NCBI GenBank assembly: GCA_965204155.1
Contig: OZ241971.1
Location: 128,100 to 192,099, forward strand
Reading direction: 5' to 3'
DNA from: Candidatus Rariloculaceae bacterium
GTDB taxonomy: Bacteria > Pseudomonadota > Gammaproteobacteria > Steroidobacterales > Rariloculaceae
Length of the DNA: 64,000 nucleotides
Made by a program: the position numbers and the translations under genes. Shown here piece by piece: positions 1 to 60,589 of this stretch (its first letter is position 1; each line of letters opens with the position of its first letter). The notes beneath the pieces were generated by a model. It saw only the letters and a program-made list of their open reading frames with translations, made no database searches and was not told the origin of the DNA.

Positions 1-303
1 CAGGGCATATCGACGGCCGAATGGATCATGGCCGGCCCCTCCGGCTTCGGTTCCATGAAGTCCGTCACCACCCGGCTGCGGCCCGGGTACCTGCGCAAGA
101 ACGGCGTACCTTACAGCGACAGCACGGTCTTCACCGAGTACTGGGACGTTCATGTCCAGGACAACGGCGACCGGTACCTGGTCGTGACCAACACGGTGGA
201 GGACCCGGTCTATCTGCAGCTCCCGTGGATCACGGCCATCCACTTCAGGAAGGAAGACGATCGCGGCAGGTGGGACCCGACACCCTGCGACGCGCGGTTC
301 TGA
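1..303 (+). CDS. 3' end of a secreted WEG-module family protein; the gene starts upstream of the window
   Basis: Frame 1 is open from nt 1. The translation QGISTAEW...PGYLRKNGVPYSD...EDPVYLQLP...WDPTPC aligns with the C-terminal third of the 4932..5705(-) product (WQGHSAASW...PGYLRKNGVPYSGD...TDPANLTRP...WDPTPC). Confidence 0.65.
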   Translation, partial: QGISTAEWIMAGPSGFGSMKSVTTRLRPGYLRKNGVPYSDSTVFTEYWDVHVQDNGDRYLVVTNTVEDPVYLQLPWITAIHFRKEDDRGRWDPTPCDARF

Positions 304-324
304 CATCCTCAGGAGACAAAGCTG

Positions 325-1335
325 GTGACTCGAACAACTTTCGCTACGGCCCTGACAACCTGTTGCGCGCTGCTGATCGCGGCCGTTTCGGCCCAGTCCC
401 AGGTCCAGCTCACGGGCACGTACGAGGACCGCCTTTACGAGGACTACATCGAGCGCGGCCCCGGTTCGGACCTGGGCGACTACACCGGGATGCCGATGAC
501 CGACGAAGCCCGGGCCAAGGCGCTGAGCTACACGTCGAACATGCCCATGACCATCGAGCGGCAGTGCCTCTCGCAGGCGCCCTGGGTCGGACTCTACCGG
601 CCCCGGCTCTATCGGATCTGGAGCATCAATGACGAAACCGACGGCAGCGTCATCGCCTGGGTGGTGGCTGGCAACTATCTCAGGGACACGATCACGATCT
701 GGATGGACGGGCGCGAGCACCCGTCGGAAAACGCCTGGCACCCGTCCGGCGGATTCGCCACGGGCAAGTGGGAAGGCAATACGCTGACCGCGCGCATGAC
801 CCACGTGAAAACGGCCTGGATCAGGCGCGGCAACGGCATTCCCGGCAGCGATCGGACCACGTTCACGGTACACCTCACCCGCCACGGCGACCTGCTGACC
901 GTCACGGTTATCCAGGAGGACCCGATCTACCTGAGCGAGCCCCACGTCGTGAGCCGGGTCTGGCAGTACGAGCCCAATGGGCGGCAAGGCCCGGAGCGGA
1001 CGCAGTGCAATACGGCGAACGAGATCCCGTATCTCGAGGACAGCGGACTCGTGCCCCACTACCTGCCGGGAGAAAATCCGGAAGAAGACTTCATGGTCCG
1101 CACCTACAACATCCCGAAAGAGGCCGCGATGGGCTATGCCCATACGCTGTATCCGGAGTATCGCAACACCATTCGGGACAGCTACGTGCCGCCGGCCTCG
1201 TGCGGCCGCTACTGCTGCGGCTGGATCGAGCGGCAGGGGCTGCCGGGAGGCGCACCGAACCTGACCTGCAACGACGGTGGCTTTGCCGAACTCGGACCCC
1301 GAGGGCGCCGGCTGATTGAGGAGGCAACCGAATGA
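325..1335 (+). CDS. Secreted WEG-module protein of unknown function with a Cys-rich C-terminus
   Basis: GTG start 8 nt after an AGGAGA Shine-Dalgarno sequence. Signal-peptide-like N-terminus (ALLIAAVSAQSQ). Blocks IWMDGREHP...GFATGKWEGNTLTARMTH...EDPIYLSEP are shared with the N-terminal half of 6123..7967(-) and with the other WEG paralogs. Confidence 0.7.
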   Translation: MTRTTFATALTTCCALLIAAVSAQSQVQLTGTYEDRLYEDYIERGPGSDLGDYTGMPMTDEARAKALSYTSNMPMTIERQCLSQAPWVGLYRPRLYRIWSINDETDGSVIAWVVAGNYLRDTITIWMDGREHPSENAWHPSGGFATGKWEGNTLTARMTHVKTAWIRRGNGIPGSDRTTFTVHLTRHGDLLTVTVIQEDPIYLSEPHVVSRVWQYEPNGRQGPERTQCNTANEIPYLEDSGLVPHYLPGENPEEDFMVRTYNIPKEAAMGYAHTLYPEYRNTIRDSYVPPASCGRYCCGWIERQGLPGGAPNLTCNDGGFAELGPRGRRLIEEATE

Positions 1336-1793
1336 GAACAACTTTCCTGGCAGTCGCCGCGCCGGGCCGCGGGCCGGGCCGCAGTCCGTGGCACAAGATT
1401 TCGATGCAGGCGCTTTCCCTGGCAGGCGCCGCGCTGCTGATGGGCGCAGGAGCCTGGGGCCATCACTCGTTCGCCGCGGTTTATCTTGAAGATCAGGAGG
1501 TGACGATCGAAGGCCGCCTCGTGCAGTTCCTGTGGCGCAATCCGCATACCCTGGTGCACGTCATGGTCGAGCAGGAAGACGGCTCGAACGTGCGCTACGT
1601 GGTCGAATGGGGCTCGGCGACCCAGCTCGGCGCCACCGGGGTGACACAGGCAACGCTGCGGCCCGGCGACTACGTGGTGATCAACGGCAATCCCGGCCGC
1701 AACGTGGAGGACAACCGCGTGCGCCTGCTCAACTTCCTCAGGCCCTCCGACGGCCTGACCTGGGGTCTTCGCCCCGACGAGGTCTTCGACTGA
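1332..1793 (+). CDS. Small secreted HHS-module protein (probably the Pfam family named DUF6152; unverified)
   Basis: ATGA overlap with the stop of the upstream gene. A hydrophobic leader ends ...GAGAWG and is followed by HHSFAAVY...VTIEGRLVQFLWRNPH. An alternative ATG start lies at 1404. Paralogous to 1817..2215, 5712..6107 and the N-termini of 3159..4196 and 59582..60589. Confidence 0.75.
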   Translation: MRTTFLAVAAPGRGPGRSPWHKISMQALSLAGAALLMGAGAWGHHSFAAVYLEDQEVTIEGRLVQFLWRNPHTLVHVMVEQEDGSNVRYVVEWGSATQLGATGVTQATLRPGDYVVINGNPGRNVEDNRVRLLNFLRPSDGLTWGLRPDEVFD

Positions 1794-1816
1794 GGCCTGC
1801 CGGTCCCGGCGCGGTC

Positions 1817-2215
1817 TCAGAACCGCGAGGCCGGGATCACCGTGCCATCTTCCCGGACGATCTCGGGCGAGAACATCCCGTAGACACCCGTGGCCTTGGG
1901 CGGGTGCCCGGTAGCGATAATGGTTTCACCCGGCGTGAAAAACTCCGCCGACCAGCCCATCTTCTGAAGCCGAACGGCACCGGTGAACTCGATGATCCAT
2001 TCCTGTGTCTCGCCCTGCTCGTCGGTCACGTCCACGTAGAGGAACGGGTGGGGGTTCACGAACGTCCATTTCGTCACGACTCCATGGATTTCAACGGTCC
2101 TTTCCTGGTCGTAGAACGGCGCCGTGGAGTGGTGGGCACCGGCCGAACCCGTCAGGACCTGGTACCCTGCGGCGGCCGCGACGAGAGCCGGGAAGGCCAG
2201 GATGTTGCGTTTCAT
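1817..2215 (-). CDS. Small secreted HHS-module protein (DUF6152-like)
   Basis: Signal peptide MKRNILAFPALVAAAAG...SAGA followed by HHSTAPFYD...VEIHGVVTKWTFVNPH. Same architecture as the other HHS paralogs. Lies 28 nt downstream of the WEG gene 2244..3029. Confidence 0.8.
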   Translation of the reverse strand: MKRNILAFPALVAAAAGYQVLTGSAGAHHSTAPFYDQERTVEIHGVVTKWTFVNPHPFLYVDVTDEQGETQEWIIEFTGAVRLQKMGWSAEFFTPGETIIATGHPPKATGVYGMFSPEIVREDGTVIPASRF

Positions 2216-2243
2216 GCGTGCTTGCTCCCTGAATTCGCTCCGG

Positions 2244-3029
2244 TCAGCGAATCCCGTATTTCAAGTCTTCCTCGGGAATATACCGCAGAGGCGCTCGCGC
2301 CTGGGCGGGATCGCACGGCAGCCAATCCACCAATGGGGTGTCCGTCGGCTCGAACTGGTAGCTGAATCGAATGCGTTCGGACAGCATGAGCGGATCCTCC
2401 AGGACAACATCCACCGTGAGAACTTCACCGTCCCTGGAATAACGCTCGACCGTGCGCTTGGACGTTGACGAAGGTGCCATGGGAGACCTGTCGTTGATGC
2501 CGGCAGGATTGAATGCGTACCGGGTGGTCTCGACCAGGAGTTCGCCGTTCTCGTAGCGGCCGGTGGAATAACCCTGGATCGAGTAATCGTTGGCCGTGGG
2601 CTCCCGATGGCCATGCCCTTCAAGCCACACCGTGCGCCTCACGTCATCCTTCTCGAACCGGATGAACACGCGGTCCGCCTGTTGCTCGATGGAGAAATTG
2701 TACGGGTCGCCCAGAATCTGGGGAATGGTCACGGGAACACAGTCATACATCGGGTGCAGGGACTCGTCGAACGCTTCCTGCATTCCGATGCCCCTGGCAT
2801 TGAGCGGGAACTCGCGCGGACTGCCGAAGCCCCTTGCATCCGGTGCGAGTTCGTCCGGTCTGGCAAGTCGGATCCGCTGCCAGGCGGAGGAGAGGTCCGG
2901 AACCTCCGTAGCCTCCTCCTGAGCAGTAAGGTTGCCCGGGAGGGACGCGGCAAGAGCCATCGCAAGCGTCGCGACGGCACTGCCTGCAGTGACCCCTGGC
3001 AGCAAGGCGGGTTTCTCCGTGCAATACAT
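2244..3029 (-). CDS. Secreted WEG-module protein of unknown function
   Basis: Ala-rich leader. Blocks VWLEGHGH...GYSTGRYENGELLVETT...EDPLMLSER are homologous to the WEG blocks of the other paralogs. Co-oriented with the HHS gene and immediately upstream of it. Confidence 0.7.
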   Translation of the reverse strand: MYCTEKPALLPGVTAGSAVATLAMALAASLPGNLTAQEEATEVPDLSSAWQRIRLARPDELAPDARGFGSPREFPLNARGIGMQEAFDESLHPMYDCVPVTIPQILGDPYNFSIEQQADRVFIRFEKDDVRRTVWLEGHGHREPTANDYSIQGYSTGRYENGELLVETTRYAFNPAGINDRSPMAPSSTSKRTVERYSRDGEVLTVDVVLEDPLMLSERIRFSYQFEPTDTPLVDWLPCDPAQARAPLRYIPEEDLKYGIR

Positions 3030-3158
3030 GTTTTTCCCCGGGCGAATCGGTTAGCTGTCGATCAACCGATAGTATCAAACGTTCCGATTGTCGGGGCAGT
3101 GTCGGCGATTCGGGGTAAGATTTGAAGAGCCATCCAATTGAACCATCGGTGAAACCGT

Positions 3159-4196
3159 ATGAGACTGACTCTTGCTCTGACTACGGTCATGCTCCTTCCC
3201 TTCGCCGGACTTGCCCACCATTCGACCGGGGGATTCTACGACACGGGTACGACGATCGAGATCAGCGGAACCGTTACGGAAGTCTTCTGGCGCAATCCTC
3301 ACGTCGGCCTGACGATCGAAGTGGAAAACGACGCCGGCGCGACGGAGCTATGGGAGATCGAGGGCGGCGCCTGGAACACCGTGCAGCGGCGCGGAGTCAC
3401 GTCGCAGACCGTAGCAATCGGCGACATGATCAGGGTCGCCGGCAACCCAGCTACCCGCGGTGTGAAGGCCATCTGGACATCCCACATGCAGGTACCGAGT
3501 GGCGAAGAGTTCACGATTTCCGACCGCCCCGATCCGCCCCGCTGGACCGAACCGTCATCGCCGCCGACTGAGGTCTCCGCCGGCGCTACCGTGGCGGACG
3601 CAGAAGCCCCGAACGGCATATTCCGGGTCTGGAGTTCCGTACGCGGGTTTGGCGGTGGCATCGAGCCGCCCATACTCACGGCAGAGGCACAGGCGCTGAA
3701 AGACCGGTGGGATCAGGCCGTGGACGATCCGGGACTGCGCTGCGATGCGCCGGGAATGCCCAACGCGATCCTCAATCCCTATCCGATTCAGTTCATCGAC
3801 GAGGGCGACCGCATCCGCCTCCTGATCGAGGAGTGGGACGGCAATCGGGTGATCTACATGGATCCCGCGTCGACGCCGGCGGACCCGCCCGTCGATCGTC
3901 TCGGCCACTCCGTCGGCCGATGGGAAGGAAACACGCTGGTGGTCGAAATTGACCACCTGTCATGGCCTTACCTCGATGCGCAGGGTACGCCCATGAGCGA
4001 TGCCGTCACCATGGTCGAGCAATTCATACTTAGCGATGACGAGACGCGTATGAGTTATAAGGTCTCCGTCACCGATCCCGTGTACCTGACCGCACCCGCC
4101 GTATGGCAGAGATCCTACGCCTGGGTGCCGGGCGCCGAAGTCAAGCCCTTCGACTGCACGCTCAGGGAAACGGGCCGGAGCGTCTACGAAAACTGA
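3159..4196 (+). CDS. Secreted fusion protein: N-terminal HHS module plus C-terminal WEG module
   Basis: One continuous 345-aa ORF. Signal peptide ...PFAGLA is followed by HHSTGGFYD...ISGTVTEVFWRNPH (HHS module), a Pro-rich linker, then IYMDPA...GHSVGRWEGNTLVVEIDH...TDPVYLTAP (WEG module). Collinear paralog of 59582..60589(-). Confidence 0.8.
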   Translation: MRLTLALTTVMLLPFAGLAHHSTGGFYDTGTTIEISGTVTEVFWRNPHVGLTIEVENDAGATELWEIEGGAWNTVQRRGVTSQTVAIGDMIRVAGNPATRGVKAIWTSHMQVPSGEEFTISDRPDPPRWTEPSSPPTEVSAGATVADAEAPNGIFRVWSSVRGFGGGIEPPILTAEAQALKDRWDQAVDDPGLRCDAPGMPNAILNPYPIQFIDEGDRIRLLIEEWDGNRVIYMDPASTPADPPVDRLGHSVGRWEGNTLVVEIDHLSWPYLDAQGTPMSDAVTMVEQFILSDDETRMSYKVSVTDPVYLTAPAVWQRSYAWVPGAEVKPFDCTLRETGRSVYEN

Positions 4197-4272
4197 CTGT
4201 TTGCGGAGAAGCATTCGTCGCAAACTGCAGCGTGCATTGCGCAACTTTGCCGTGCGCTTCGAATATCCAGAA

Positions 4273-4572
4273 TCACGGCATGTACCTGTCGATATCCAAA
4301 GCCCCATGGAACACGCCAAGCACATCGATCCGATCCGATTCATCGCGTCGGAGGTAGGCGATTCGATAATGGCCATAGAGCAACACGCGAATTTCTCCTT
4401 CTTCCACAGTACGGTAGCGATAGCCGATATCGGGAAAGTCTCCAAGAACTTGCGCCTTATCGTAAATGCCGTTTACAACCCTGGCAGCGGCGTCGGGATT
4501 CTCCTGTGCGATGTAATCGAAGATGTCATGTAACCACTGTTCCGATTCGTGCGTCCACCTCAGCCGCGCCAT
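4273..4572 (-). CDS. Type II toxin, RelE/ParE superfamily
   Basis: 99-aa product with typical ParE/RelE size and C-terminal pattern (...IRVLLYGHYRIAYLRRDESDRIDVLGVFHGALD). Overlaps the upstream small gene by 13 nt. Local GC is visibly lower than the flanks. Confidence 0.8.
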   Translation of the reverse strand: MARLRWTHESEQWLHDIFDYIAQENPDAAARVVNGIYDKAQVLGDFPDIGYRYRTVEEGEIRVLLYGHYRIAYLRRDESDRIDVLGVFHGALDIDRYMP

Positions 4573-4745
4573 AACCTGATCCGCCGCGCTAATTCCCTGT
4601 CATCGATCACCCGATCGGCCCGGACATCCTCCATCCCTCTCGCAATCATCCGGTCGAAAGTCAGTGCCCGCATGATTTCCTCGTAGGATGCGTCCTCCGG
4701 TTGGGTCTCAACTACCTTTCTCATCAGTTCCTTTGCTGTGGACAT
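4560..4745 (-). CDS. Putative antitoxin partner of the RelE/ParE toxin
   Basis: 61-aa acidic protein directly upstream of the toxin gene and overlapping it, which is the canonical antitoxin-toxin order. The family was not identified from sequence alone. Confidence 0.6.
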   Translation of the reverse strand: MSTAKELMRKVVETQPEDASYEEIMRALTFDRMIARGMEDVRADRVIDDRELARRIRLWRG

Positions 4746-4931
4746 GCTCGGTTCCTCTGTTGAGATTCTGCACTCGTGCTATCACCTTCGCGTTCGGCAG
4801 AGAATGGCTCGTCGACGTCGACGAGAGCATCCATCCAGAACTGCCCTGCTCCGCGAAACCATGCGGATATGATGAAGCATATGCCATGCCGAGCTTGGCC
4901 GAAACCCAGATGGCTATGGCGCAGCGACAAT

Positions 4932-5705
4932 TCAGCGGGGATGGTCCACCCGGCAGGGGGTCGGGTCCCAGCCGCTGCCGTCGTCCACCTGCCTGAAGTG
5001 GTTCGTGACCGCGTAGGGTCGCGTCAGGTTGGCGGGGTCCGTGACGATGCTGGTGACGACCATCCAGCGATCGCCGTTGGGCTCGGTGAAGACGTCGAAG
5101 TGCTCTTCAAGTACCGCATCGCCGCTGTACGGCACGCCGTTCTTGCGCAGGTAGCCCGGCAGCATGTTGGTGGTGGTGACCTTGAGGTAACGGGCATCCT
5201 CGGCGCTGGATTGACTCAACCAGGACGCCGCCGAGTGTCCCTGCCATGAGGGCGGCCCGGCTTCGGTTTCGTCGAAGTGCAGCAGCCGGGTCTGCGTACC
5301 GGAGTCGATGTCGATCTGCAGCGTTTCGTCGTCGGCCCACTGGATGTGCAGCCGCCCCGGCAGGCGCATGATGGAGGCAGCGCCGTAACCCCGGCATTCG
5401 TTCCCGGCGTCGTCGCCGGGGTTCCAGGCATCGGCGTACTCGCGCGACTCGCCTGTCAACGGCAACATGCTGTAGTTGCCCTTCGGCGGCATCAGCATGC
5501 GCAGGTGCCAGTACTCGCTGACCACGGAAACCCAGTACCCCGTCAGGTCCTGGGCGGCGGCTTCGCGTCCGCTGCGGGGGTCGGGGGGTGGTGGAGGCCG
5601 GTCGAAGAACTGGGCAAGCGCATCGCTCGCACTGCCCAGCGTCAGGGTCAGGACGAGCAGGCAAACGGCGCCTTGCATTGAGCCACCCTGTGAACGGCCG
5701 GACAT
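4932..5705 (-). CDS. Secreted WEG-module protein (PGYLRKNGVPYS subtype)
   Basis: Signal peptide (AVCLLVLTLTLGSASDALAQ) and a poly-Pro stretch. The C-terminal part is homologous to 1..303 and more distantly to the other WEG modules. Starts 6 nt after the stop of the HHS gene 5712..6107. Confidence 0.7.
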   Translation of the reverse strand: MSGRSQGGSMQGAVCLLVLTLTLGSASDALAQFFDRPPPPPDPRSGREAAAQDLTGYWVSVVSEYWHLRMLMPPKGNYSMLPLTGESREYADAWNPGDDAGNECRGYGAASIMRLPGRLHIQWADDETLQIDIDSGTQTRLLHFDETEAGPPSWQGHSAASWLSQSSAEDARYLKVTTTNMLPGYLRKNGVPYSGDAVLEEHFDVFTEPNGDRWMVVTSIVTDPANLTRPYAVTNHFRQVDDGSGWDPTPCRVDHPR

Positions 5706-5711
5706 GGCCCG

Positions 5712-6107
5712 CTAGCGGACCCGGCCGCGCCAGGACCACCCGTCGCTGGGGCGCGTGACCTCGTGCAACAGCAGCCTGTTGTACCCGGAATCCCGCGGCG
5801 GAAGGCCGCTGGCCACGATCTGCTGACCGGGCAGCAACGTCGTTCGGGTCAGCCGCGCCTCGGACAACTGGTTGATGGAGGCCCACTCCAGCACCCAGGT
5901 TTCCACGCTCCCGTCGGCGCCGGTGACATCGACGCGAAGAAACGAATGCGGGTTGCGCCACACGAGTTCCTTGACCACCCCCTGGATCTCGATGGGATCG
6001 GAATCTTCGTCGTACGTGGCCTGGAACGAATGGTGCGTCCAGCCGGCGCTCGAAACCGCCAGCGCGGCAGCACCGCCGAGCAGTGTCCTCACATGCACTT
6101 GCGTCAT
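5712..6107 (-). CDS. Small secreted HHS-module protein (DUF6152-like)
   Basis: GAGGAGAG Shine-Dalgarno sequence upstream. Leader ...AVSSAGWT followed by HHSFQATYD...IEIQGVVKELVWRNPH. Lies 15 nt downstream of 6123..7967. Confidence 0.8.
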   Translation of the reverse strand: MTQVHVRTLLGGAAALAVSSAGWTHHSFQATYDEDSDPIEIQGVVKELVWRNPHSFLRVDVTGADGSVETWVLEWASINQLSEARLTRTTLLPGQQIVASGLPPRDSGYNRLLLHEVTRPSDGWSWRGRVR

Positions 6108-6122
6108 CGGATCTCTCCTCGG

Positions 6123-7967
6123 TTATCTCGCCAGGCTGTCGTAGGCAGCCCCGACGAACATGTCGGTGGTCCAGTCCCCGCTGTCGCTGCCATAGCGGGC
6201 ATCGTATCCCCACGTGGGCCCGGCGGCGATGATCGTCTCCCGCGTCATCCCGCTGTCGATCATGGCCAGGATCCGGTCGCGGATCACGCTCACCATGTCA
6301 CGGTAGTAGGCGACTTCCGCGTAGTCGGCGATGCGTCCCCGTCCGGGCACCACGAGCGTGCCGCCGGAGGAGTTCTCCGCCGGTGCAACGATGCTGATCA
6401 GGTAGTTCAGCGCATCCACAAGCGCCTGAATGCCACCGCCCGTGTCCGGGTCGATCCGCGGGAAGCGGGTCAGGTCGAGCAGATCGCCGGCGCTGACCAC
6501 GTCGGACTTTCGAAACAGCACCACGCTGTTGGAATCGCTGGTGCCCGGCCGATGGGTAATGACCACGGGTTCGTCGTTGAAGTGCAGCCGCTTCCATGGC
6601 GTGGAATAGGTATTGTCCGGCCATCCGCCCTCCGGCAGGGGCTCGCCGCCGTCGGGAGGCACGATCATTCGGGCAAATACGCTGAGATAGGCGATGACCG
6701 ACGCCTTGTCCCTGCCCAGCGCACCCTGGGGACCCTGGGCGTAAGTCTCGGCTCGCCAGGGAACCTGCTCCCCGGCTGCGGCGATCAAGTCGTTACCGCC
6801 GGTATGCTCCCGGGTGTGCGTGGTGTTGACGATGTACCGGATCGGGCCGTCGGAGATGGTGCGGATGGCCTCGAGCACTGCCTCGCTCATCGACTCGACC
6901 CCCGTATCCACCACCAGCACGCCGTCCTCGCCGGCCTGCACGGAGATGTTGGCGCCGGCGCCGAAAAGCGCAAACACATTACCCTGCACTGGCAGCACCT
7001 GAATCTCACCCGGCTCCGGCCCTCCCTCCAGTTCGACGCCCCATATGGGTTGGAGCCCGATCTCTTCCCCCTGCGGGCGCATGAACGGCGCGGCAGGGTC
7101 TGCGCCCGCCGGGTTGGTTTCCATGGCTGCCAGGTCGTCGACGTACCCGGGCAACATCGTGCTCGCGCCGCCGAGCTTCGCCTCGTAGGGCGTTTCGAAC
7201 TCGTCGACCCGGTCCGGGTCCAGCCCGGGCAGCGGACTCTGCCCCGGGAGGAAATGGGATACCGAACCGCGGGGGACGACGGTTTCGGTTGCCTCCTCGC
7301 AGGGGTATGGGGCCATGGGACGTTCGGGAGAGTCCACCCACATGTTGGCACTGCGAATATAGGGCTCCGCCAGATAAATGGGGTCGTACATGATCGTGGT
7401 GGCCTGAAGATAGTCGCCGATGCGCCTCCATCGCGTGCGCACCGTCGTGCGGTCGCTGCGCATCAAGCCGGTGCGCCGGATATAGGCCTCCTTGAGGTGG
7501 GTGGTGGTGGTGACCAGGACATCGCCCTCCCACTCGCCCGTGGTGAACCCGCTCCAGGTGTGCGGGGCGTTGGCCGGCGGATGGGGACGGCCGTCCAGCC
7601 AGATGAAGGTTTCCTGTTGCTCCATCTGAATGTGTCCGCGATAGGCGATGATCTGTTGCGTGGCCCGGTCGACGATGGGCAGGAAACGGATCTGGGAAAG
7701 CGGGCCGTCCAGAGAGTAGTCCCACGCGTGGGGCCGGCACACCCACTCGGCCGTGTCGAATTCCTCGGCGGACCAGCTATGGGCGCGCCTGCGTCCGTCG
7801 ACGCTCAATGGAATACCGGCCGCATCGCCGGTGTCACCGCTGCCATCCTGGTCGCGGGGCAACGGAACCCACATGCCGGTGATATCCATCTGCGCAACGG
7901 CCGGTGCAGTCCCGAGCACGCAAAGCAGCGCCCAGATGGTCAGCAGTGCGATTTTCCTTCTCAACAT
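6123..7967 (-). CDS. Secreted fusion protein: WEG module plus metallo-beta-lactamase-fold domain with a non-canonical metal motif
   Basis: Signal peptide (LLTIWALLCVLGTAPAVAQ). The N-terminal half is homologous to 325..1335 (IWLDGRPHP...GFTTGEWEGDVLVTTTTH...YDPIYLAEP). The C-terminal half has an MBL-like layout (VLVVDTG...IVNTTHTREHTGGN...HRPGTSDSN...SAGDLL). Confidence 0.75.
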   Translation of the reverse strand: MLRRKIALLTIWALLCVLGTAPAVAQMDITGMWVPLPRDQDGSGDTGDAAGIPLSVDGRRRAHSWSAEEFDTAEWVCRPHAWDYSLDGPLSQIRFLPIVDRATQQIIAYRGHIQMEQQETFIWLDGRPHPPANAPHTWSGFTTGEWEGDVLVTTTTHLKEAYIRRTGLMRSDRTTVRTRWRRIGDYLQATTIMYDPIYLAEPYIRSANMWVDSPERPMAPYPCEEATETVVPRGSVSHFLPGQSPLPGLDPDRVDEFETPYEAKLGGASTMLPGYVDDLAAMETNPAGADPAAPFMRPQGEEIGLQPIWGVELEGGPEPGEIQVLPVQGNVFALFGAGANISVQAGEDGVLVVDTGVESMSEAVLEAIRTISDGPIRYIVNTTHTREHTGGNDLIAAAGEQVPWRAETYAQGPQGALGRDKASVIAYLSVFARMIVPPDGGEPLPEGGWPDNTYSTPWKRLHFNDEPVVITHRPGTSDSNSVVLFRKSDVVSAGDLLDLTRFPRIDPDTGGGIQALVDALNYLISIVAPAENSSGGTLVVPGRGRIADYAEVAYYRDMVSVIRDRILAMIDSGMTRETIIAAGPTWGYDARYGSDSGDWTTDMFVGAAYDSLAR

Positions 7968-8222
7968 GGCAGGTGGACTCAGCTAGTGAATTCCTTACCC
8001 GTTATGCATTATGTATGGTGACCGGCAATCCGAATTCCGATATGTCGCAGCATAAGCATCTCAGAATATGAACATTATTGCTGAAAGAAGTGTTGAGGAT
8101 TGGTTTACTCTCCATGAAAAGATCGCAATTCTACTGTTTGCGATGACTGGTAGAGTCGGCCCGCACCGTGGTCGAATCGCTGTAGTAAACTCTGCCGCCA
8201 CACGGGTGGGCATGCCACAGGG

Positions 8223-8636
8223 ATGACAATGCATTACTCGAAGTTCGGATTCGCGGCCGCCGTACTGCTGTTTTCACTGCAAGGCGGCGCGCAGGTACCG
8301 GAGGACGGGCTGACGTCCCGCGAGCTCGGCATAAGCCTTGAATCACCGATTTCCCGTGTCGAACTGATCGAGCGCGGCGAAGCCGTATACAATTACTGGT
8401 GCAATACCTGCCACGGACCCGAGATGCTCAAGCCGGGTACCGCAGCGCTTGCAATCAAGTACCGCGGAGAACTCCCGGCCACGTTGACCGAGCGCACCGA
8501 CATGGTGCCGGAATTCGTGGAACTGATGGTCCGCGAGGGTATCTCGATGATGCCGTTTTTCAGGCCGACGGAAATCAGCAATGCGGACCTCGATGCCGTG
8601 ACCGCCTACCTCACACAAAATACCGGAGAACTATGA
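8223..8636 (+). CDS. Monohaem c-type cytochrome, probable small subunit of a p-cresol-methylhydroxylase-type flavocytochrome
   Basis: Signal peptide, a single CNTCH (CxxCH) haem motif, and a downstream Met-rich segment (SMMPFF). The stop overlaps the start of the flavoprotein gene (ATGATG at 8633). An alternative start at 8229 sits behind AGGGA. Confidence 0.75.
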   Translation: MTMHYSKFGFAAAVLLFSLQGGAQVPEDGLTSRELGISLESPISRVELIERGEAVYNYWCNTCHGPEMLKPGTAALAIKYRGELPATLTERTDMVPEFVELMVREGISMMPFFRPTEISNADLDAVTAYLTQNTGEL

Positions 8637-10246
8637 TGGCAATACCCCCGGGCGTTAACGAACAGGACTTCCGGATAGCGCTCGGCGAATTCGAGAGCGC
8701 CGTGGGCAGCGACTGGGTATTCACCGAGGACGAGGACACGCGCCTGTACCGTGACGCCTACTCGCCGGTACAGAACGAGCCCGAAGAGATTCTGGTGTCC
8801 GCCGCCGTCGCGCCGGACAACACGGAGGAGGTCCAGCAGGTCGTTCGCACCGCCAATCGCTATCGCATTCCGATTTATCCGATCTCGACCGGCCGCAACC
8901 TCGGCTATGGCGGTTCCGCGCCCAACCTGTCCGGTAGTGTCGTGCTGGATCTCAAGCGCATGAATCGCGTAATCGAGGTCGACGACAAGCGCCACTACGC
9001 CATCGTCGAACCGGGCGTGTCGTACTTCGACCTGTATCGCTACATCCAGGACCGCAATCTGAAGGTCCTCATCGACTGCCCTGACCCGGGCTGGGGCAGC
9101 GTGGTCGGCAACGCGCTCGATCACGGGGTCGGCTATACGTGGGGCGCCTATCGCGACCATTTCATCTCGCACTGCGGCATGGAAGTGGTCCTGCCGGACG
9201 GCGAGCTGATGCGTACCGGCATGGGCGCGCTGCCCGGCGCCGACACCTGGGGCGAATACCGTTACGGTTTCGGTCCGCACGTCGATGGCCTGTTCTCCCA
9301 GGGCAACTTCGGCGTGGTCACGAAGATGGGGTTTCACCTGTTCCCGGAGCCGGAAGCCTATCTGAAGGGAACCGTGTCCGTACCGGCGCGGCGCGACATC
9401 ATCGATCTTGTCGCGATCGTGAATCAGCTCGAACACGCCGGCCTGATCGGTATGCCGCGCTACAACACGCCGCTGACGGCGCATTTCTCCGAGCCCGAGG
9501 TCGCGGAGATTCTGAATCAGCCGTTCGCCCGTTCCGCGCAGGACCTCGAACGCTGGGCACAGGGCAACGACATGGCCTACTACCGCTGCGAACTCCAGTT
9601 CTACGGGCCCAGGGAAACCGTACGGGCCAACTGGAACTACGCACAGCGGCTGCTCGGCGATATCCCGGGCGCGAGATTCAGCCTCGATCATGAACTTCAG
9701 TGGCCTATCACGGCCGACGAAGTCGAGGGATTACACAAGGTGGCGCTCGGCATTCCGAACATGGAGATCTTCCGGCTGGGGACCCGGCCTGACGCCGACA
9801 CGCTGGGCTGGGACGGCGAGATGTGGTTCGCACCGCTCATCCCGAAGTCGGGGGAAGCCGTTTTGGAAGCGCAGCAAGTCTTCACCGAAGCCTTCAGGGA
9901 AATGGGGATGCGGTCGTTCACCCACCCGGCTTCCACCCCGGCGACCTGGATGTACCGGGCGTTTATCTTCATCATGGGATTCCCGGTATCGCGGATCGAC
10001 GTGGAGGCGAATCAGCGCCAGCGCGAGGCGTTTACGCACCTGGCGAACCTTGGCGCAGAGCGCGGCTGGGGCGAGTATCGAACGCCGCCGATCTTCCAGG
10101 ACCTGATCATGGGGCACTACTCGTTCAACGATCACGCGTTGCGGCGGTTCAGCGAGACCCTGAAGGATGCAGTCGACCCGAACGGTATCATTTCCGCCGG
10201 CCGCGGCGGTATCTGGCCGAAGCACATTCGGGAGCGCAGCGCGTAG
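8633..10246 (+). CDS. FAD-linked oxidase, 4-cresol dehydrogenase / vanillyl-alcohol oxidase family flavoprotein subunit
   Basis: About 537 aa. Family-typical N-terminus (FEDAVGSDWV-like: LGEFESAVGSDWVFTED...YRD) and FAD-binding PCMH-type domain (IPIYPISTGRNLGYGG, VVLDLKRMNRVIEVD). The ORF-track start at 8399 lies inside the cytochrome gene. The ATG at 8633 gives the expected length. Confidence 0.8.
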   Translation: MMAIPPGVNEQDFRIALGEFESAVGSDWVFTEDEDTRLYRDAYSPVQNEPEEILVSAAVAPDNTEEVQQVVRTANRYRIPIYPISTGRNLGYGGSAPNLSGSVVLDLKRMNRVIEVDDKRHYAIVEPGVSYFDLYRYIQDRNLKVLIDCPDPGWGSVVGNALDHGVGYTWGAYRDHFISHCGMEVVLPDGELMRTGMGALPGADTWGEYRYGFGPHVDGLFSQGNFGVVTKMGFHLFPEPEAYLKGTVSVPARRDIIDLVAIVNQLEHAGLIGMPRYNTPLTAHFSEPEVAEILNQPFARSAQDLERWAQGNDMAYYRCELQFYGPRETVRANWNYAQRLLGDIPGARFSLDHELQWPITADEVEGLHKVALGIPNMEIFRLGTRPDADTLGWDGEMWFAPLIPKSGEAVLEAQQVFTEAFREMGMRSFTHPASTPATWMYRAFIFIMGFPVSRIDVEANQRQREAFTHLANLGAERGWGEYRTPPIFQDLIMGHYSFNDHALRRFSETLKDAVDPNGIISAGRGGIWPKHIRERSA

Positions 10247-11194: not shown

Positions 11195-14100
11195 CTATTC
11201 CCTGCCCGCTTCGGCAATCATGACCAGCGAGGGCAGCAGGAACAGGATGAAGAGGCCCGAGAAGATCAGCCCGCCCAGCATGCTGACCACGAAGGGGACC
11301 AGGAACATCAGTATATCGCTTCGCTCATAGAGCAGCGGCGCCAGCGCCAGAACCGTCGTCAGGCTGGTCAGAAAGACTGCGCGGAAGCGATGCCGGGTGG
11401 CGGCCGATGCCGCGGCAATGGCAGGAAGCATCTCGTTCTCGCGGCGCAGGGTGTTGTATCGGTCCATCAGGACCAGCGCGTCATTCACGATCACGCCCGC
11501 AACACCGATCAGGCCGAACAGGGACATGAACCCATAGTCCCATCCCAGTATCCAGTGGCCGAAGACCGAACCGGCAAACGCGATCGGAACCCCGACGACC
11601 GCGATCAGGGGCTTCCAGTAACTCCTGAGAAACGCCGCGATGAGCACGTACATCGCAATCATCACCAGGGGGACGAGGACTCGCAGCGTGTCGAGCATGG
11701 ATCTCTCTTCCCTGGCGCTGCCGTCCGGCTCGATGACCAGGCCGGGGTACATTGCGAGCAGGTCGGGTATCACGTTCTGATTGACTTGCCGCCTGGCCAG
11801 CAGCGGTGTCACCACCGCGGGGTCGGCCTCGCCGGTCACCCTTGCGGTCTGCTGCCCGTCGATACTGGTCAGCGCCGACAACTCCCGTCGCTCAACCAGG
11901 TTCGCCACGGTGGACAGCGGGATCTCGCCAACGCCTCCGGGCCTGAATATTCGTTCGTTGGCCAGTTCGCGAAGGCTTTGGCGCTGCTCCTCGGGGTATC
12001 TCACCACCACCTTGATTTCGTCGGCGCCGCGCTGAAGCCGCTGTACCACCGCTCCGTGGAAATTCGAGCGCAACTGCGCGCCGATCGATCCGGTCGTCAG
12101 GCCGGCGGCGTGCCCTTCCGGCGTGAGCTCGATTTCCAGGTGCCGTTTGCCCAGCGCCTGACTGTTCGCAACCGCATAGACACCCGGTACGTCTTGCATA
12201 CCGGCAACCAGGTTGTTGGCGGCTTGCCGAAGAATCTCGGGATCGTCATGCTTTACGGCATAGGCAATTCCGGACACGGGCCGCGTGACTCCGGTGTAGT
12301 ACCTGATGTTCGCAAGGTATGAGACGTCACCGACATTCTCGCGCAACTGACGCTGGACCTCCTGAATGGACGCCTGGCGCTCCGGTCTGTCGTTCAGGTG
12401 AACCACGACCGAAGCCTGGTGACTGTTGATGCGCGCCAGCGCCTGATTGGGCGGCGCGAAGAAACTGCCGGCCATGACGCTGATCGACTCGATCGGTGTT
12501 CCGGTGCTCTGGCCGTTGATCCGTTGCGCCGCATCCACGAATCGCTCTGCCGTGGCAAGAGTCGTTGCGAAGGGCGTTCCCACCGGTAGCGCCAAGTCCA
12601 CCTGGAGGTCGTCGGACGCATTGATCATTTCATCGAAGTAGACGACCTGTACGGCTTCGCTGCGCATCAGCACCAGGGCAAAGACCACAATCACGGCGCC
12701 GCAGGTCGGCGCGAACCAGACGCGTTGCACCGACCAGGACACCGCCGGGACGACAATATTGTCCCGCATCGCGGCCAGCCGTTTCCGCACCCGGGCCTGA
12801 AAGTCGCTCAGCGGCGGGACGCTCCAATTCCTTTCGTGGGACAGGTGCGACGGCAGGATGAAGAAGGCTTCCACGAGCGAAACGACCAGCACGAAGAACG
12901 CCACGTACGGAAAGACACTGACCATCTGAACCCTGATCGGGGTGACGAACAGGAACGGCAGGAAGGCGAGAATCGTCGTCACGGCGCCGATGGTAATCGG
13001 CCCGACCATGGCTCGCGCTCCCGAAACTGCCGCCTCCAGTGCCCCCTTGCCGCGCTCCCGTTCCGCGGCAATGCTCTCGCCGACCACCACGGCATCGTCC
13101 ACGACGATGCCCACCATCAGGAAGAAGGCAAAGATCGTCCCGAGATTCAGCGTCATGCCCGTGGGAGCGAAGAAGATCAACGATCCCAGGAAGGACAGCG
13201 GAATGCCCACGGTGATCCAGACCGCGACGCGCAGGTCGAAGAACACGATGAGGCAAATGAAGACCAGAATGATCCCGATCACGGCATTCTGAACGATGAG
13301 CGAGATCCGCTCCACGGCATCGCCTGCGCGATCGTTCCACATTTCCACCGCGATACCGGCCGGGGCCGAATAACCGGCAAGCGAGTTCCTGATCTCCTCG
13401 CCCATCGCCACGATCGACTGCTGCTCCGCTGCGTCGACGCGGACGAACACCGCCGGATCGCCGTCCACCCGGGCAATGATGTCCTCGTCCACAAATCCGT
13501 CGCGGATGTCAGCCACATCGCCCAGCGTGAGCATTGTTCCGTCCATCCTGGCGATCAGCGGAATGTCCTCGAATTCTTCTCCGGTCTGCCGTTTCGCCAC
13601 CGTATGCAGTACCAGGCCGCCCGAGTCCGTGCGCAGTTCCCCAAACGTCAGGTTGAGGGACGCGCGCTCCACGGCGTTGGAGATCTGGAGGATGGTGAGC
13701 GAATGCCGCCGCATCTCTTCCTCGCTCAATTCGATGGTAATCTCGCGATCCCTCGTACCGAGCAGCGCCACCTGGGACACGGATGGCAACTCCAGCAGGT
13801 GCACGCGCAGATCCTCGGCCGCGAGCCGCAATTCGTCCTCCGTGGCCGATGCGGACGACACCGCGAGTGTCATGACCTCGATGTCGAGCCTGTCGTACTG
13901 GACTTCCGGTTGTTCGGCCGTCAGCGGCGGGAAATTCTCGATGCGGTCCACCGCACTCTGTACGTCGTCCAGAACCGCGTCGGCATTCGCGAAGGTTGCC
14001 AGCTCGACCCTGATCTCTCCCCGGCCTTCGTACGCCGTCGCTACAACGCGCTCCACGCCCGGCAGACCGACCACGTTCTCCTCTACCCGGCGTACGATGT

Positions 14101-14290
14101 CCTCCTCGACCTCCCTGGGAGAGGAGCCGGGAGAGACAACCGTCACCGATACGGATCTCAGATCGAGATCCGGATAACTCTGAACCGGAAGATTGCGTCC
14201 GGCAATCAAGCCGCCGACGATAAAGAACGCCATGAGCAGATTGGCGGCGATCGGATTCCCGGCGAAATATGCAATCGGCCCTGATCTCAC
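11195..14290 (-). CDS. RND efflux transporter permease (AcrB/AcrD/AcrF family)
   Basis: 1031 aa. Typical N-terminus (FAGNPIAANLLMAFFIVGG), 12-TM layout and two large periplasmic loops. Confidence 0.9.
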   Translation of the reverse strand: MRSGPIAYFAGNPIAANLLMAFFIVGGLIAGRNLPVQSYPDLDLRSVSVTVVSPGSSPREVEEDIVRRVEENVVGLPGVERVVATAYEGRGEIRVELATFANADAVLDDVQSAVDRIENFPPLTAEQPEVQYDRLDIEVMTLAVSSASATEDELRLAAEDLRVHLLELPSVSQVALLGTRDREITIELSEEEMRRHSLTILQISNAVERASLNLTFGELRTDSGGLVLHTVAKRQTGEEFEDIPLIARMDGTMLTLGDVADIRDGFVDEDIIARVDGDPAVFVRVDAAEQQSIVAMGEEIRNSLAGYSAPAGIAVEMWNDRAGDAVERISLIVQNAVIGIILVFICLIVFFDLRVAVWITVGIPLSFLGSLIFFAPTGMTLNLGTIFAFFLMVGIVVDDAVVVGESIAAERERGKGALEAAVSGARAMVGPITIGAVTTILAFLPFLFVTPIRVQMVSVFPYVAFFVLVVSLVEAFFILPSHLSHERNWSVPPLSDFQARVRKRLAAMRDNIVVPAVSWSVQRVWFAPTCGAVIVVFALVLMRSEAVQVVYFDEMINASDDLQVDLALPVGTPFATTLATAERFVDAAQRINGQSTGTPIESISVMAGSFFAPPNQALARINSHQASVVVHLNDRPERQASIQEVQRQLRENVGDVSYLANIRYYTGVTRPVSGIAYAVKHDDPEILRQAANNLVAGMQDVPGVYAVANSQALGKRHLEIELTPEGHAAGLTTGSIGAQLRSNFHGAVVQRLQRGADEIKVVVRYPEEQRQSLRELANERIFRPGGVGEIPLSTVANLVERRELSALTSIDGQQTARVTGEADPAVVTPLLARRQVNQNVIPDLLAMYPGLVIEPDGSAREERSMLDTLRVLVPLVMIAMYVLIAAFLRSYWKPLIAVVGVPIAFAGSVFGHWILGWDYGFMSLFGLIGVAGVIVNDALVLMDRYNTLRRENEMLPAIAAASAATRHRFRAVFLTSLTTVLALAPLLYERSDILMFLVPFVVSMLGGLIFSGLFILFLLPSLVMIAEAGRE

Positions 14291-14377
14291 GGCAGCTCCT
14301 TGAATTTCAACTTTCTGGTCGCGCAGGCGGTCTGGCTGGCAGGGCGGAGTATTTCTTGCCCCACATTTGAGTGGGGG

Positions 14378-15463: not shown

Positions 15464-15681
15464 GTTGGTTTCCGGTGCCCGTTGGAGTGCAGAGTTTACG
15501 TTGTTGCAGTGTTTGTTCTTGCGTTTTGTGCATAACCGAGACCAATATCTCGCGCCTGCCCCAGAGAGAATACCCGCAACATCGGTTCGATAAAAGTCAC
15601 CGGCTCGTTTTGCCATCGGCCGTTGTCTGCAGGATCACTACACACACTCAGTGCAGTGCGCCCGTTGGCAGGGTATCCGCG

Positions 15682-20314: not shown

Positions 20315-20320
20315 GGCGAG

Positions 20321-21088: not shown

Positions 21089-21107
21089 CAGTGCTCCTTC
21101 AACCGAC

Positions 21108-59054: not shown

Positions 59055-59585
59055 TTACGCTGCCTGCGTGCGTGCCGGCCTCCCTTCGAACTCGAGCAGG
59101 TACTCCTTGCGCCAGAGGCCCCCGCCGTAGCCGCCCAGGCCGCCGCCGGTCCGGACGACCCGATGGCACGGCACCAGCACGCTCACCGGGTTGCGACCGA
59201 TGGCGCTGCCCACCGCCCGGACGGCCGCAGGATTGCCGACGGCGCCGGCTATCTCCGCATAGGTTCGGGTCTCGCCGTGGGGTATCCCCAGCAATGCCTG
59301 CCAGACGGCCACCTGAAAGGCTGTCCCGCGCAGGTCCAGGGGAATGGCAGGAGGACCAGACGCACGCGCCGAACCGGCAAAGTACGCGGCCAGTTCGCTT
59401 TCCACCTGCCTGAACAGCGCCTGGTCGGCGTCGCTGACCCGCAGGTTGTACGGCAGCGCGGCCAGCGAACGGCGCGCGTCGCTGCGGTCGGCGAACTCGA
59501 TGAGGCGGCAACCGCCCCGGCCTACGCCCAGTATCAGTTCACCAATGGGGCTGGAAATTCGCTTGACGGAAATACTGTCGTTCAT
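59055..59585 (-). CDS. ogt: Methylated-DNA--protein-cysteine methyltransferase (Ogt/Ada C-domain type)
   Basis: Active-site PCHRVV and FQVAVWQALLGIPHGETRTYAEIA. The ATG at 59585 overlaps the TGA of the upstream gene (ATGA). Confidence 0.85.
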   Translation of the reverse strand: MNDSISVKRISSPIGELILGVGRGGCRLIEFADRSDARRSLAALPYNLRVSDADQALFRQVESELAAYFAGSARASGPPAIPLDLRGTAFQVAVWQALLGIPHGETRTYAEIAGAVGNPAAVRAVGSAIGRNPVSVLVPCHRVVRTGGGLGGYGGGLWRKEYLLEFEGRPARTQAA

Positions 59586-60589
59586 TCGGCACTCCAAAGC
59601 TGGCAGTCGTAAGGGTTGATCGTCTCGCCGGGCCGGTATGCCCAGGTCTTGGTCATCACCACGGGCTCGGTGAAGATGGCGGGATCCGTGACCGTCACGG
59701 AGTACTCGAGTCGACTGCCCTCGTCATTGACCCTGAATCGCTCCAGGTTGTGGACGGCTTCGGTCTGGGGAATGCCGGTCTTGTCGAAATGCGCGTAGTT
59801 GATGTGCGTTGTTTCCACGACCAACACATCGCCCTCCCATCGCCCCACCGAATGGCCGAGCAGGCCCGGCTCGGGGTTCGCGGGCACTGCCTCCGGTGTC
59901 ATGTAGATGGTGCGAACCAGATCGTATTCCTCGATGTAGAGCAGGATCCTGTCGCCCTCGTCCACGAACTCCATGGGATACGGGTTCTCCATGATGAAGG
60001 CCATCCCCTTCGGCGCGCAGTTGGCGGTGGGCTCGTCGGCGATGGGATCCCAGCCGGCGCGAGCGGTTCGCGCAAACTCCGTCAGCGGATAACTGTTGTT
60101 CCACAGCCGCCCGGCGCTGGTCCAGACCCGGAACAGGCCGAGTTCCGGATCGGCGGCGACCTCGCCCCGCAGGTCTTCGCCGATGGTGTTGTCGGACCAG
60201 CGGGGGCGTGAAGACAGCAGGACTTCCTGCCCTGACGGCAGCAGCATGTTGCTCACCCACATGGCGGTATCCGACTGCCTGCCGGCGCGGCCGGCCAGGC
60301 GAACGCGGGTACCGACCTCGACAACATCTTCGTCCAGGCCCCATCGGCTCAGTATCGAAACCGACGTGGTTTCGATATCCCAGTCCCGACCGTCATCGTC
60401 CCGCAGGGTGAAGCGGATGTGCGGGTTTTGCCAGAGGACTTCGGTGATTTCCCCTTCGACCTCGACCTCTCGGTTTTCGTAGAAGGGCGCCGAGGAGTGA
60501 TGGGCATTGACAGGGGATCCGGGAAGGATCAGCAAGCTGCACGCGCCCCAAATCGTGACTTGTCCGACCCGACGTATCAAGCTGTTCAT
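59582..60589 (-). CDS. Secreted fusion protein: HHS module plus WEG module (paralog of 3159..4196)
   Basis: Leader ...LILPGSPVNA followed by HHSSAPFYE...VEGEITEVLWQNPH. The C-terminal part carries IYMTPE...GHSVGRWEGDVLVVETTH...TDPAIFTEP. Collinear with 3159..4196 over its full length. Confidence 0.8.
   Translation of the reverse strand: MNSLIRRVGQVTIWGACSLLILPGSPVNAHHSSAPFYENREVEVEGEITEVLWQNPHIRFTLRDDDGRDWDIETTSVSILSRWGLDEDVVEVGTRVRLAGRAGRQSDTAMWVSNMLLPSGQEVLLSSRPRWSDNTIGEDLRGEVAADPELGLFRVWTSAGRLWNNSYPLTEFARTARAGWDPIADEPTANCAPKGMAFIMENPYPMEFVDEGDRILLYIEEYDLVRTIYMTPEAVPANPEPGLLGHSVGRWEGDVLVVETTHINYAHFDKTGIPQTEAVHNLERFRVNDEGSRLEYSVTVTDPAIFTEPVVMTKTWAYRPGETINPYDCQLWSAE

Follow-up and report, generated by a model that had tools for sequence, protein, structure and literature searches.

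A candidate N-terminal histidine metal site on the exported OB-fold family DUF6152 and its partner barrel

Why should five divergent exported proteins, encoded within one stretch of a bacterial chromosome, all be predicted to begin with the same pair of histidines once their signal peptides have been removed? The question is posed by a stretch of 64,000 nt (hereafter the window, meaning the whole stretch of DNA that was analysed) on contig OZ241971.1 of Candidatus Rariloculaceae bacterium, for which an initial annotation had pointed to an invariant His-His-Ser (HHS) at the predicted mature N-terminus of five paralogues and had suggested a metal site akin to copper histidine braces. The window is chromosomal, with genes that include plsX, fabH, RNase E/G, mfd, dnaE2, comEC, putA and selB, and it is related to metagenome-assembled genomes of Candidatus Rariloculaceae, the best loci being at 89% identity. 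The five paralogues belong to a Pfam family, DUF6152 (PF19649), which is already catalogued as a domain of unknown function yet uncharacterised, and the conservation of their histidines makes an N-terminal-His metal site on this family plausible.

Invariant histidines behind the signal peptide

A translation scan of the whole window for HHS followed by NPH some 25 residues on yields exactly five open reading frames (ORFs), and the hidden Markov models (HMMs) that we built likewise count five DUF6152 domains and none further. All five match PF19649 at 52.0-82.3 bits, against a gathering threshold of 27 bits; in the list below the slash marks the predicted cleavage site, and domain X is the partner domain described in the next section.

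1332..1793, + strand: DUF6152 copy 1, 153 aa (PF19649 E 1.5e-19, 70.3 bits)
1817..2215, - strand: DUF6152 copy 2, 132 aa, ...GSAGA/HHST (PF19649 E 2.7e-23)
3159..4196, + strand: DUF6152 copy 3 fused to domain X, 345 aa, ...FAGLA/HHST (PF19649 E 1.4e-20)
5712..6107, - strand: DUF6152 copy 4, 131 aa, ...SAGWT/HHSF (PF19649 E 2e-20)
59582..60589, - strand: DUF6152 copy 5 fused to domain X, 335 aa from the ATG at 60589, ...SPVNA/HHSS (PF19649 E 7.9e-14)

Copy 1 has a long leader, with cleavage predicted at ...GAGAWG/HHSF and NPH at residues 70-72. Translation of the window ORFs returns all five leader and HHS strings exactly as they had been quoted, and an alignment of the five copies bears out the description of divergent leaders before a constant motif, in that the leaders vary across the paralogues and HH is invariant. 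Pairwise identity among the five is 22-30%, with HH and NPH among some ten invariant columns. The DNA word CAYCAYTC occurs nine times in the window against 8.75 expected and is not enriched; the HHS signal is positional, occupying the same place in five divergent paralogues, and does not reflect the abundance of a DNA word.

The family extends far beyond this locus. A profile search of 1.84 billion cluster representatives, with family clusters counted at 50% identity, detected the family in at least 15,542 clusters with an E-value of 1e-3 or lower, and in 8,742 when the limit was set to 1e-10. From these clusters 148 representatives were retrieved, and 191 DUF6152 ORFs were found in 79 genomic loci from GTDB species representatives; the related loci were gathered with an alignment of the fused proteins, no stretch of the DUF6152 alignment being conserved enough. 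The motif HHx...NPH is present in 145 of the 148 representatives, the exceptions being two N-terminally truncated or chimeric sequences and one that reads HHS...EPH, and in 185 of the 191 locus ORFs, where four truncated sequences and two of an HHG variant lack it. This variant forms a subfamily (L005 2615-3103, L008 2187-2741) in which NPH is lost, A/HHG is kept and a loop His is retained (HLGAAHD). Homologues from the Sphingomonadales keep the motif as well (...A/HHSFAMFD...W-x-NPH). Among the roughly 340 relatives examined, which include cluster representatives at 50% identity and Sphingomonadales, each full-length sequence has His-His immediately behind an AXA-type site.

Pooling of the sequences into a set of 495 unique members refines the claim of an invariant HHS: the His-His pair holds throughout the family, whereas the third residue is Ser in 417 sequences, Ala in 51 and Gly in 20, so that about 15% carry Ala or Gly in its place. 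The spacing from HH to NPH is nearly fixed, at 24 in 386 sequences, 23 in 77, 22 in 16 and 25 in 13. Mean column identity in the alignments is 18%, yet HH and NPH are invariant, and in the broad alignment the only residues conserved besides Gly, Pro and Trp are His1, His2 and the Asn and His of NPH, so that the three His are the sole chemically reactive side chains kept throughout the family.

The same pooled set locates the histidines with respect to the signal peptide. Residue -1 is Ala in 407 sequences (82%), Gly in 64 (13%), Thr in 10 and Ser in 10, and one of these four residues is thus found in 491 of the 495; residue -3 is Ala, Val, Leu, Gly, Ser or Thr, and residues -4 to -6 are rich in Pro, Ala and Ser. 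An AXA-type site lies directly before HH in about 99% of the sequences and a spacer was never seen, the leader before HH measuring about 19-24 residues (median 21-24). DUF6152 domains that appear to be internal are each preceded by a typical signal peptide with AXA right before HH, and these apparent internal copies can hence be taken as miscalled starts. On the strength of such family-wide signal-peptidase I statistics, the proposal that His is residue 1 of the mature DUF6152 protein is strongly supported as a prediction from sequence, and the absence of any spacer between the cleavage context and HH suggests that the exact N-terminus matters.

A predicted OB-fold and its partner barrel

AlphaFold2 (AF2) modelling of fused copy 3 with 111 homologues gives two packed domains (predicted local distance difference test, pLDDT, 87.9; predicted template modelling score, pTM, 0.84), and that of copy 2 with 117 diverse representatives reaches a pLDDT of 91.1. 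In the models DUF6152 has the order beta1-beta2-beta3-alpha-beta4-beta5 in agreement with the oligonucleotide/oligosaccharide-binding (OB) fold, a closed barrel of five strands in which a helix joins the third to the fourth. Foldseek searches against the PDB return SSB, PriB, the anticodon-binding OB domain of LysRS and Stn1 (probability 1.00, E about 1e-3), with target-normalised template modelling (TM) scores of 0.5-0.68 that speak for similarity at the level of the fold only, without detectable homology. DUF6152 is accordingly modelled as an exported OB-fold domain of about 105 residues. NPH sits in the loop between strands 1 and 2, and the stretch of some 12 residues that leads from His1 into strand 1 has fair model confidence: in copy 3 the block 21-30 averages a pLDDT of 84, and only the signal-peptide residues 12-19 fall below 50. 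Since confidence after the cleavage site is moderate to high, the models point to an N-terminus that is ordered on the OB barrel and is not a floppy tail.

Sequence searches of the PDB, with single sequences and with profiles, gave nothing relevant, and we found no solved structure for DUF6152; NCBIfam holds no model for it. Motifs of the H-x-S/T type, as in 2H phosphoesterases, were considered and rejected by eye, the residues after the His of NPH not being conserved.

Domain X, the C-terminal 190 residues of copies 3 and 5, is likewise exported and has neither a Pfam nor an NCBIfam model. An HMM built from the fused DUF6152-domain X proteins finds seven copies in the window:

1..303, + strand: C-terminal fragment of domain X, cut by the window edge (domain X HMM E 7e-4)
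325..1335, + strand: stand-alone exported domain X, 336 aa, directly upstream of DUF6152 copy 1 (E 9e-12)
2244..3029, - strand: stand-alone exported domain X, 261 aa (E 7e-16)
3600-4196, + strand: domain X part of copy 3, C-terminus of the fusion
4932..5705, - strand: stand-alone exported domain X, 257 aa, downstream of copy 4 on the same strand (E 1.4e-11)
6123..7967, - strand: exported protein of 614 aa with an N-terminal domain X fused to a metallo-beta-lactamase (MBL) fold (E 8e-11; PF00753 E 3.8e-07)
59582-60130, - strand: domain X part of copy 5, C-terminus of the fusion (E 3.5e-74)

The domain X copies all have signal peptides and a conserved Cys...Cys pair, with which 325..1335 could also be aligned, and this pair and one Asp are the only universally conserved polar residues. 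The fragment at 1..303 and the protein at 4932-5705 further share the motif YLRKNGVPYS...DP. The AF2 model of domain X resembles the calycin barrels of FABP, CRABP and SAHS proteins (Foldseek target-normalised TM about 0.5-0.58), and a profile search retrieved more than 4,469 proteins; apart from recurrent domain X-MBL fusions of about 585 aa, they carry no Pfam domain.

The association of the two domains is pervasive. Across the 79 loci, 134 of the 191 DUF6152 ORFs are fused to domain X (116 in filtered gene calls), and 22 of 39 stand-alone DUF6152 copies adjoin a stand-alone domain X; the architecture of copy 3 is common to 510 homologues, and in this fused subfamily both halves evolve equally fast, with mean pairwise identities of 54% and 58%. 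In the window itself, positions 1 to 8000 form a cluster of DUF6152/domain X pairs. Copy 1 follows a GAGGAGG Shine-Dalgarno sequence and overlaps the upstream domain X gene by ATGA, which is indicative of translational coupling; the domain X gene at 2244..3029 is upstream of copy 2 on the same strand and therefore probably co-transcribed with it; and a same-strand run of three genes comprises the domain X-MBL gene first, then copy 4, then domain X. Because the two domains are fused or adjoining both in the window and in the related loci, we treat DUF6152 and domain X as one functional unit.

Several local features of these clusters may be recorded here. Copies 1 and 2 are convergent and 23 nt apart, as had been reported, with stops at 1791-1793 and 1817-1819 and a gap at 1794-1816; a bidirectional terminator in this gap was rejected, no terminator-like site being found and the fold z-score being -0.6. 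The cluster is interrupted at 4273-4745 (- strand) by a ParE toxin gene (PF05016, E 6e-14), overlapped upstream by a small ORF without a Pfam match that is its probable antitoxin. At 59058-59585 (- strand) lies an ogt/MGMT-type methyltransferase gene whose start overlaps the stop of copy 5 as ATGA; an MGMT gene of the same cluster was found in four related loci and adjoins a DUF6152 gene at least in L056.

A putative metal site and its known counterparts

The reading that we favour, with a confidence somewhat above even, is a mononuclear metal site made by the N-terminal His-His and the loop His on the OB scaffold, in complex with the periplasmic domain X barrel. Signal peptidase I would cut right before His-His and leave a mature chain that starts His1-His2; the alpha-amine and imidazole of His1, plus His2 and/or the loop His of W-x-N-P-H, could then bind one transition metal in an N-terminal chelate that would be histidine-brace-like on a new scaffold, and the fixed spacing suggests that the three histidines converge in space. 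DUF6152 would act as a unit with the calycin/FABP-like, disulfide-bearing domain X barrel, fused C-terminally or encoded alongside, and this unit would most likely capture metal in the periplasm or hand it on, or else carry out a metal-dependent step on small molecules that the barrel holds; it would serve the exported metallo-hydrolases and uptake systems encoded in the islands around it.

Two modes of Cu(II) or Ni(II) chelation are available to a His-His N-terminus, the brace mode, through the amine and the His1 imidazole, and the X-His mode of the GHK peptide, through the amine, the amide nitrogen and the His2 imidazole; a small third residue (Ser, Ala or Gly) fits both. Families with a signal peptide and His1, of several unrelated folds, have been found to bind Ni, Zn or Cu (Franco Cairo et al. 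2025, Nat Commun, PMC12537917). They include DUF4198, which binds Ni with a Kd of 18 nM in a facial rather than T-shaped brace and has TonB neighbours, as well as DUF6702 and the anglerases (PMC12537917). The initial suggestion of a metal site is strengthened by the family-wide conservation data and also fits the premise of that study, the text and supplements of which make no mention of DUF6152.

DUF6152 shows the traits of 'signal-strapped' secreted N-terminal-His proteins, which form a functional class and not a homologous family, namely a signal peptide, a conserved His directly behind it and further conserved putative ligands. In common with DUF4198, DUF6702 and the anglerases, it is bacterial and exported, has His directly after the signal peptide and a further conserved His on a fold that is not that of lytic polysaccharide monooxygenases (LPMOs), and lies near TonB receptors and metallo-hydrolases; the anglerases are moreover linked to a small membrane permease, with which the DUF6644 neighbours of DUF6152 in sphingomonads (see below) may be compared. 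On the other hand, those three families are beta-sandwiches without sequence or fold relationship to the DUF6152 OB-fold. His1 is conserved in about 100% of DUF6152 sequences, as against 79% and 65% in families of that study, and only DUF6152 has a second His at position 2, an obligatory calycin-like partner and a very large expansion of paralogues.

The comparison with LPMOs and CopC that the initial annotation had drawn stands as an analogy of ligand type and fails as family membership. LPMOs (AA9-AA17), CopC/PcoC, YcnI and the CuB site of PmoB in particulate methane monooxygenase (pMMO) all have a His freed by signal-peptide cleavage, as predicted for DUF6152, and at least one distal His; if His2 is counted, the putative DUF6152 ligand set (N-terminal His plus two His) is formally that of pMMO CuB and also resembles the DUF4198 Ni site. 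Histidine braces are, however, built on Ig/cupredoxin-like sandwiches, and because DUF6152 has a predicted OB-fold and not the beta-sandwich of LPMO, CopC or YcnI, it falls outside the known brace families. In LPMOs the sandwich is Ig/FnIII-like with a flat substrate face, and copper sits in a T-shaped site of the His1 amine and N-delta and the N-epsilon of a second His; DUF6152 has a conserved second and third His as putative counterparts. The DUF6152 copies have no Pfam match to the LPMO (AA9-AA17), CopC (PF04234) or YcnI families, PF19649 being their sole match, and neither LPMO, CopC, YcnI nor CusF is among the top 50 Foldseek matches of the model. A CopD/YcnJ-type protein, carbohydrate-binding modules and a pmoCAB context are absent from the window and from the recurrent neighbours, and there are no copper genes nearby.

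Two further periplasmic metal binders invite comparison. CusF, a Cu(I)/Ag(I) chaperone, is also a small periplasmic OB-fold protein with a signal peptide, and E. coli CusF has a His-rich segment right after its cleavage site (NEHHHE) that recalls the HH of DUF6152; its ligands are His36, Met47 and Met49, whereas DUF6152 has no Met-x-Met motif. The cusCBA linkage of CusF is missing as well: the RND pump of the window (11195-15616) is not adjacent to the DUF6152 genes, nor co-oriented with most of them. ZinT (YodA), a periplasmic Zn-binding protein of metal acquisition, has a His-rich mature N-terminus (HGHHSHG) and a calycin-like barrel; its main site consists of three His inside the barrel, and its N-terminal tail is disordered. 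In contrast, the domain X barrel has no conserved His and the DUF6152 histidines lie on a separate OB domain; there was no Pfam match to ZinT and no ZinT structure among the Foldseek matches.

Catabolic surroundings, rival roles and significance

The surroundings of DUF6152 are hydrolase-rich catabolic islands. After removal of shadow ORFs, domain X is the only universal neighbour, and the following recur:

Amidohydrolase_3: 11 loci
NHL propeller: 10 loci
Sulfatases: 9 loci (17 genes)
MBL: 8 + 5 loci
Amidohydrolase_1: 8 loci
Lactonase propeller: 8 loci
Amidohydrolase_2: 7 loci
Abhydrolase_10: 7 loci
TRAP DctP/DctM: 6-7 loci
M28 peptidase: 6 loci
TonB receptor: 5 loci
Pyrroloquinoline quinone (PQQ) dehydrogenase: 5 loci

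Exported metal-dependent hydrolases (MBL, amidohydrolases 1, 2 and 3, M28/M20 peptidases, sulfatases) are thus abundant nearby. A first clustering of neighbours had placed MBL genes in 27 loci, an artefact that arose because antisense shadow ORFs of DUF6152-domain X genes joined a single-linkage cluster; after correction about 13 loci remain. Such long shadow ORFs, conserved enough in this GC-rich DNA to cluster by BLAST, occur in the window at 59567-60208 (+ strand) and antisense at about 8000-9000 in many loci.

On cultured Sphingomonadales plasmids the arrangement consists of a TonB-dependent receptor, one or two DUF6152/domain X pairs and a regulator. Paired DUF6644 proteins, with four transmembrane segments, are present in three of the four Sphingomonadales loci. 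DUF6644, which is unrelated to CopD and has weak similarity to DUF2214, is linked in seven loci outside the window and absent within it; the pairs stand beside DUF6152/domain X genes in L081 (6014-6989), L084 (8081-9099), L085 (5821-6830), L024 (5433-7064), L036 (1-1647), L045 (149-1753) and L033 (3727-4008). In L084 and L085, both Sphingomonadales plasmid loci, it occurs together with the TonB-dependent receptor. Since receptor, DUF6152/domain X and DUF6644 sit together in sphingomonads, the arrangement suggests an uptake route through outer membrane, periplasm and inner membrane. L084 (Sphingobium sp. TomTYG65 plasmid AP027331.1, 294120-309068) has two DUF6152/domain X pairs inside an organosulfur-utilisation cluster, annotated with monooxygenases including alkanesulfonate monooxygenase, TauD, sulfonate-binding proteins and a TonB receptor.

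Two other parts of the window are recorded for completeness. At 15682-21229 (- strand), the gene of a DnaE2-like error-prone polymerase with PHP, pol III alpha and OB domains precedes two ORFs that have no Pfam match, possibly an imuA-imuB-dnaE2 mutagenesis cassette, and the gene at 32113-33294 (+ strand) encodes a C-terminal YtkA-like domain (PF13115) in an otherwise unannotated protein with no relation to the DUF6152 cluster.

Several observations weigh against a metal site of the kind proposed. The DUF6152/domain X unit has multiplied in Rariloculaceae-like Gammaproteobacteria, whose genomes carry at least 10-16 copies of it (at least 16 ORFs in six 17-kb samples of one 6-Mb genome), and so many paralogues are atypical of a metal chaperone. 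Neither the window nor the recurrent neighbours contain copper, nickel or zinc homeostasis genes or regulators (CopA, CueO, CusCBA partners, NikR, Zur) or metallochaperones. Foldseek retrieved no metalloprotein for the DUF6152 model, CusF falling outside the top 50, and homology to CusF, at an hhalign probability of only 19.6%, is kept as a weak lead, with the strands aligned topologically and the invariant Trp matched with Trp44 of CusF. Our literature searches found no publication on DUF6152/PF19649, nor one on a histidine brace with an OB-fold. Finally, copies 1 and 4 have Gly and Thr at -1 and plausible alternative AXA sites 2-3 residues upstream, which makes their exact cleavage site less certain than the family consensus.

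Part of this evidence would be accommodated by a role without metal, in which the ligand bound or gated by His-His and the NPH His would be, for instance, a tetrapyrrole or an anionic organic compound that is sulfated or sulfonated, and the unit would be a periplasmic carrier that passes substrates imported by TonB or TRAP systems on to hydrolases. Many divergent paralogues per genome are likewise found in solute-binding families, the fold of domain X resembles fatty-acid and retinoid carriers, sulfatases, TRAP DctPM and TonB receptors recur nearby, the module lies within the organosulfur cluster of TomTYG65, and the missing metal-homeostasis context agrees with such a role. Nevertheless, a strict His at +1 with no spacer is hard to explain unless the alpha-amine or the geometry of the N-terminus matters, three invariant imidazoles are a classic signature of metal sites, and, while specificity could lie in domain X, the invariant chemistry lies in DUF6152. 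We consider a metal-free carrier unlikely.

A true copper histidine-brace oxidoreductase appears distinctly improbable to us. It would hold Cu(II/I) through the amine and N-delta of His1 and through the NPH His, His2 supplying a fourth ligand in the manner of pMMO CuB, and would activate O2 or H2O2 on substrate bound by domain X. In effect it would be an LPMO- or pMMO-like oxygenase of the periplasm whose substrates are small or hydrophobic. Its ligand set equals that of known braces (PMC12537917), the strong expansion of paralogues is paralleled by LPMOs in fungi, the obligatory partner barrel is of a lipid- or ligand-binding calycin type, and the catabolic neighbours include a flavin adenine dinucleotide oxidase, the PQQ dehydrogenase, SsuD-type monooxygenases and a LigB dioxygenase. 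Against these points stand the OB-fold in place of a beta-sandwich and the want of LPMO matches in Pfam and of copper supply or resistance genes nearby; moreover, no conserved axial Tyr or Phe was identified, only one invariant Trp, no redox partner is consistently linked, and DUF4198 illustrates that an N-terminal His site can prefer Ni and be non-catalytic (PMC12537917).

That cleavage occurs elsewhere or not at all, leaving HH as a conserved internal or membrane-proximal motif, could be argued from the less favoured Gly and Thr of copies 1 and 4 and their alternative sites GAGA/WG and VSSA/GWT, and is made very improbable by the family-wide Ala at -1, the small or aliphatic -3, the frequent Pro, Ala or Ser at -4 to -6, the leader length and the divergence of the leader in front of an invariant HH.

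The preferred reading of an N-terminal metal site can be extended further. DUF6152 and domain X might constitute a very large new two-part class of periplasmic metalloproteins, with an OB-fold histidine brace (His1, His2, loop His) docked on a calycin-like barrel and acting as a Cu- or Ni-dependent oxygenase or as a metal-dependent processor of imported organics; in sphingomonads and in Gammaproteobacteria from the sea and from sponges, a single genome would then hold dozens of its specificities. As a whole, we hold this extension to be speculative and quite unlikely.

Sites of the histidine-brace and related N-terminal-His kinds are rare, have powerful chemistry and are now known on few folds. 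An OB-fold that carries such a site, is always paired with a calycin-like domain lacking a family model and is expanded to many copies per genome would on the present sequences and models be new, and, if it is true, more than 15,000 clusters with an invariant His1-His2 would rank among the largest such families and be the first on an OB scaffold. If no metal is bound, the strict His at +1 would itself call for a new explanation. DUF6152 always occurs with a barrel that has no family model, and a confirmed site would therefore turn two large uncharacterised families into a single system open to testing, for which Croceibacterium atlanticum, Novosphingobium humi and Novosphingobium sp. PP1Y provide cultured hosts suited to genetics and biochemistry.

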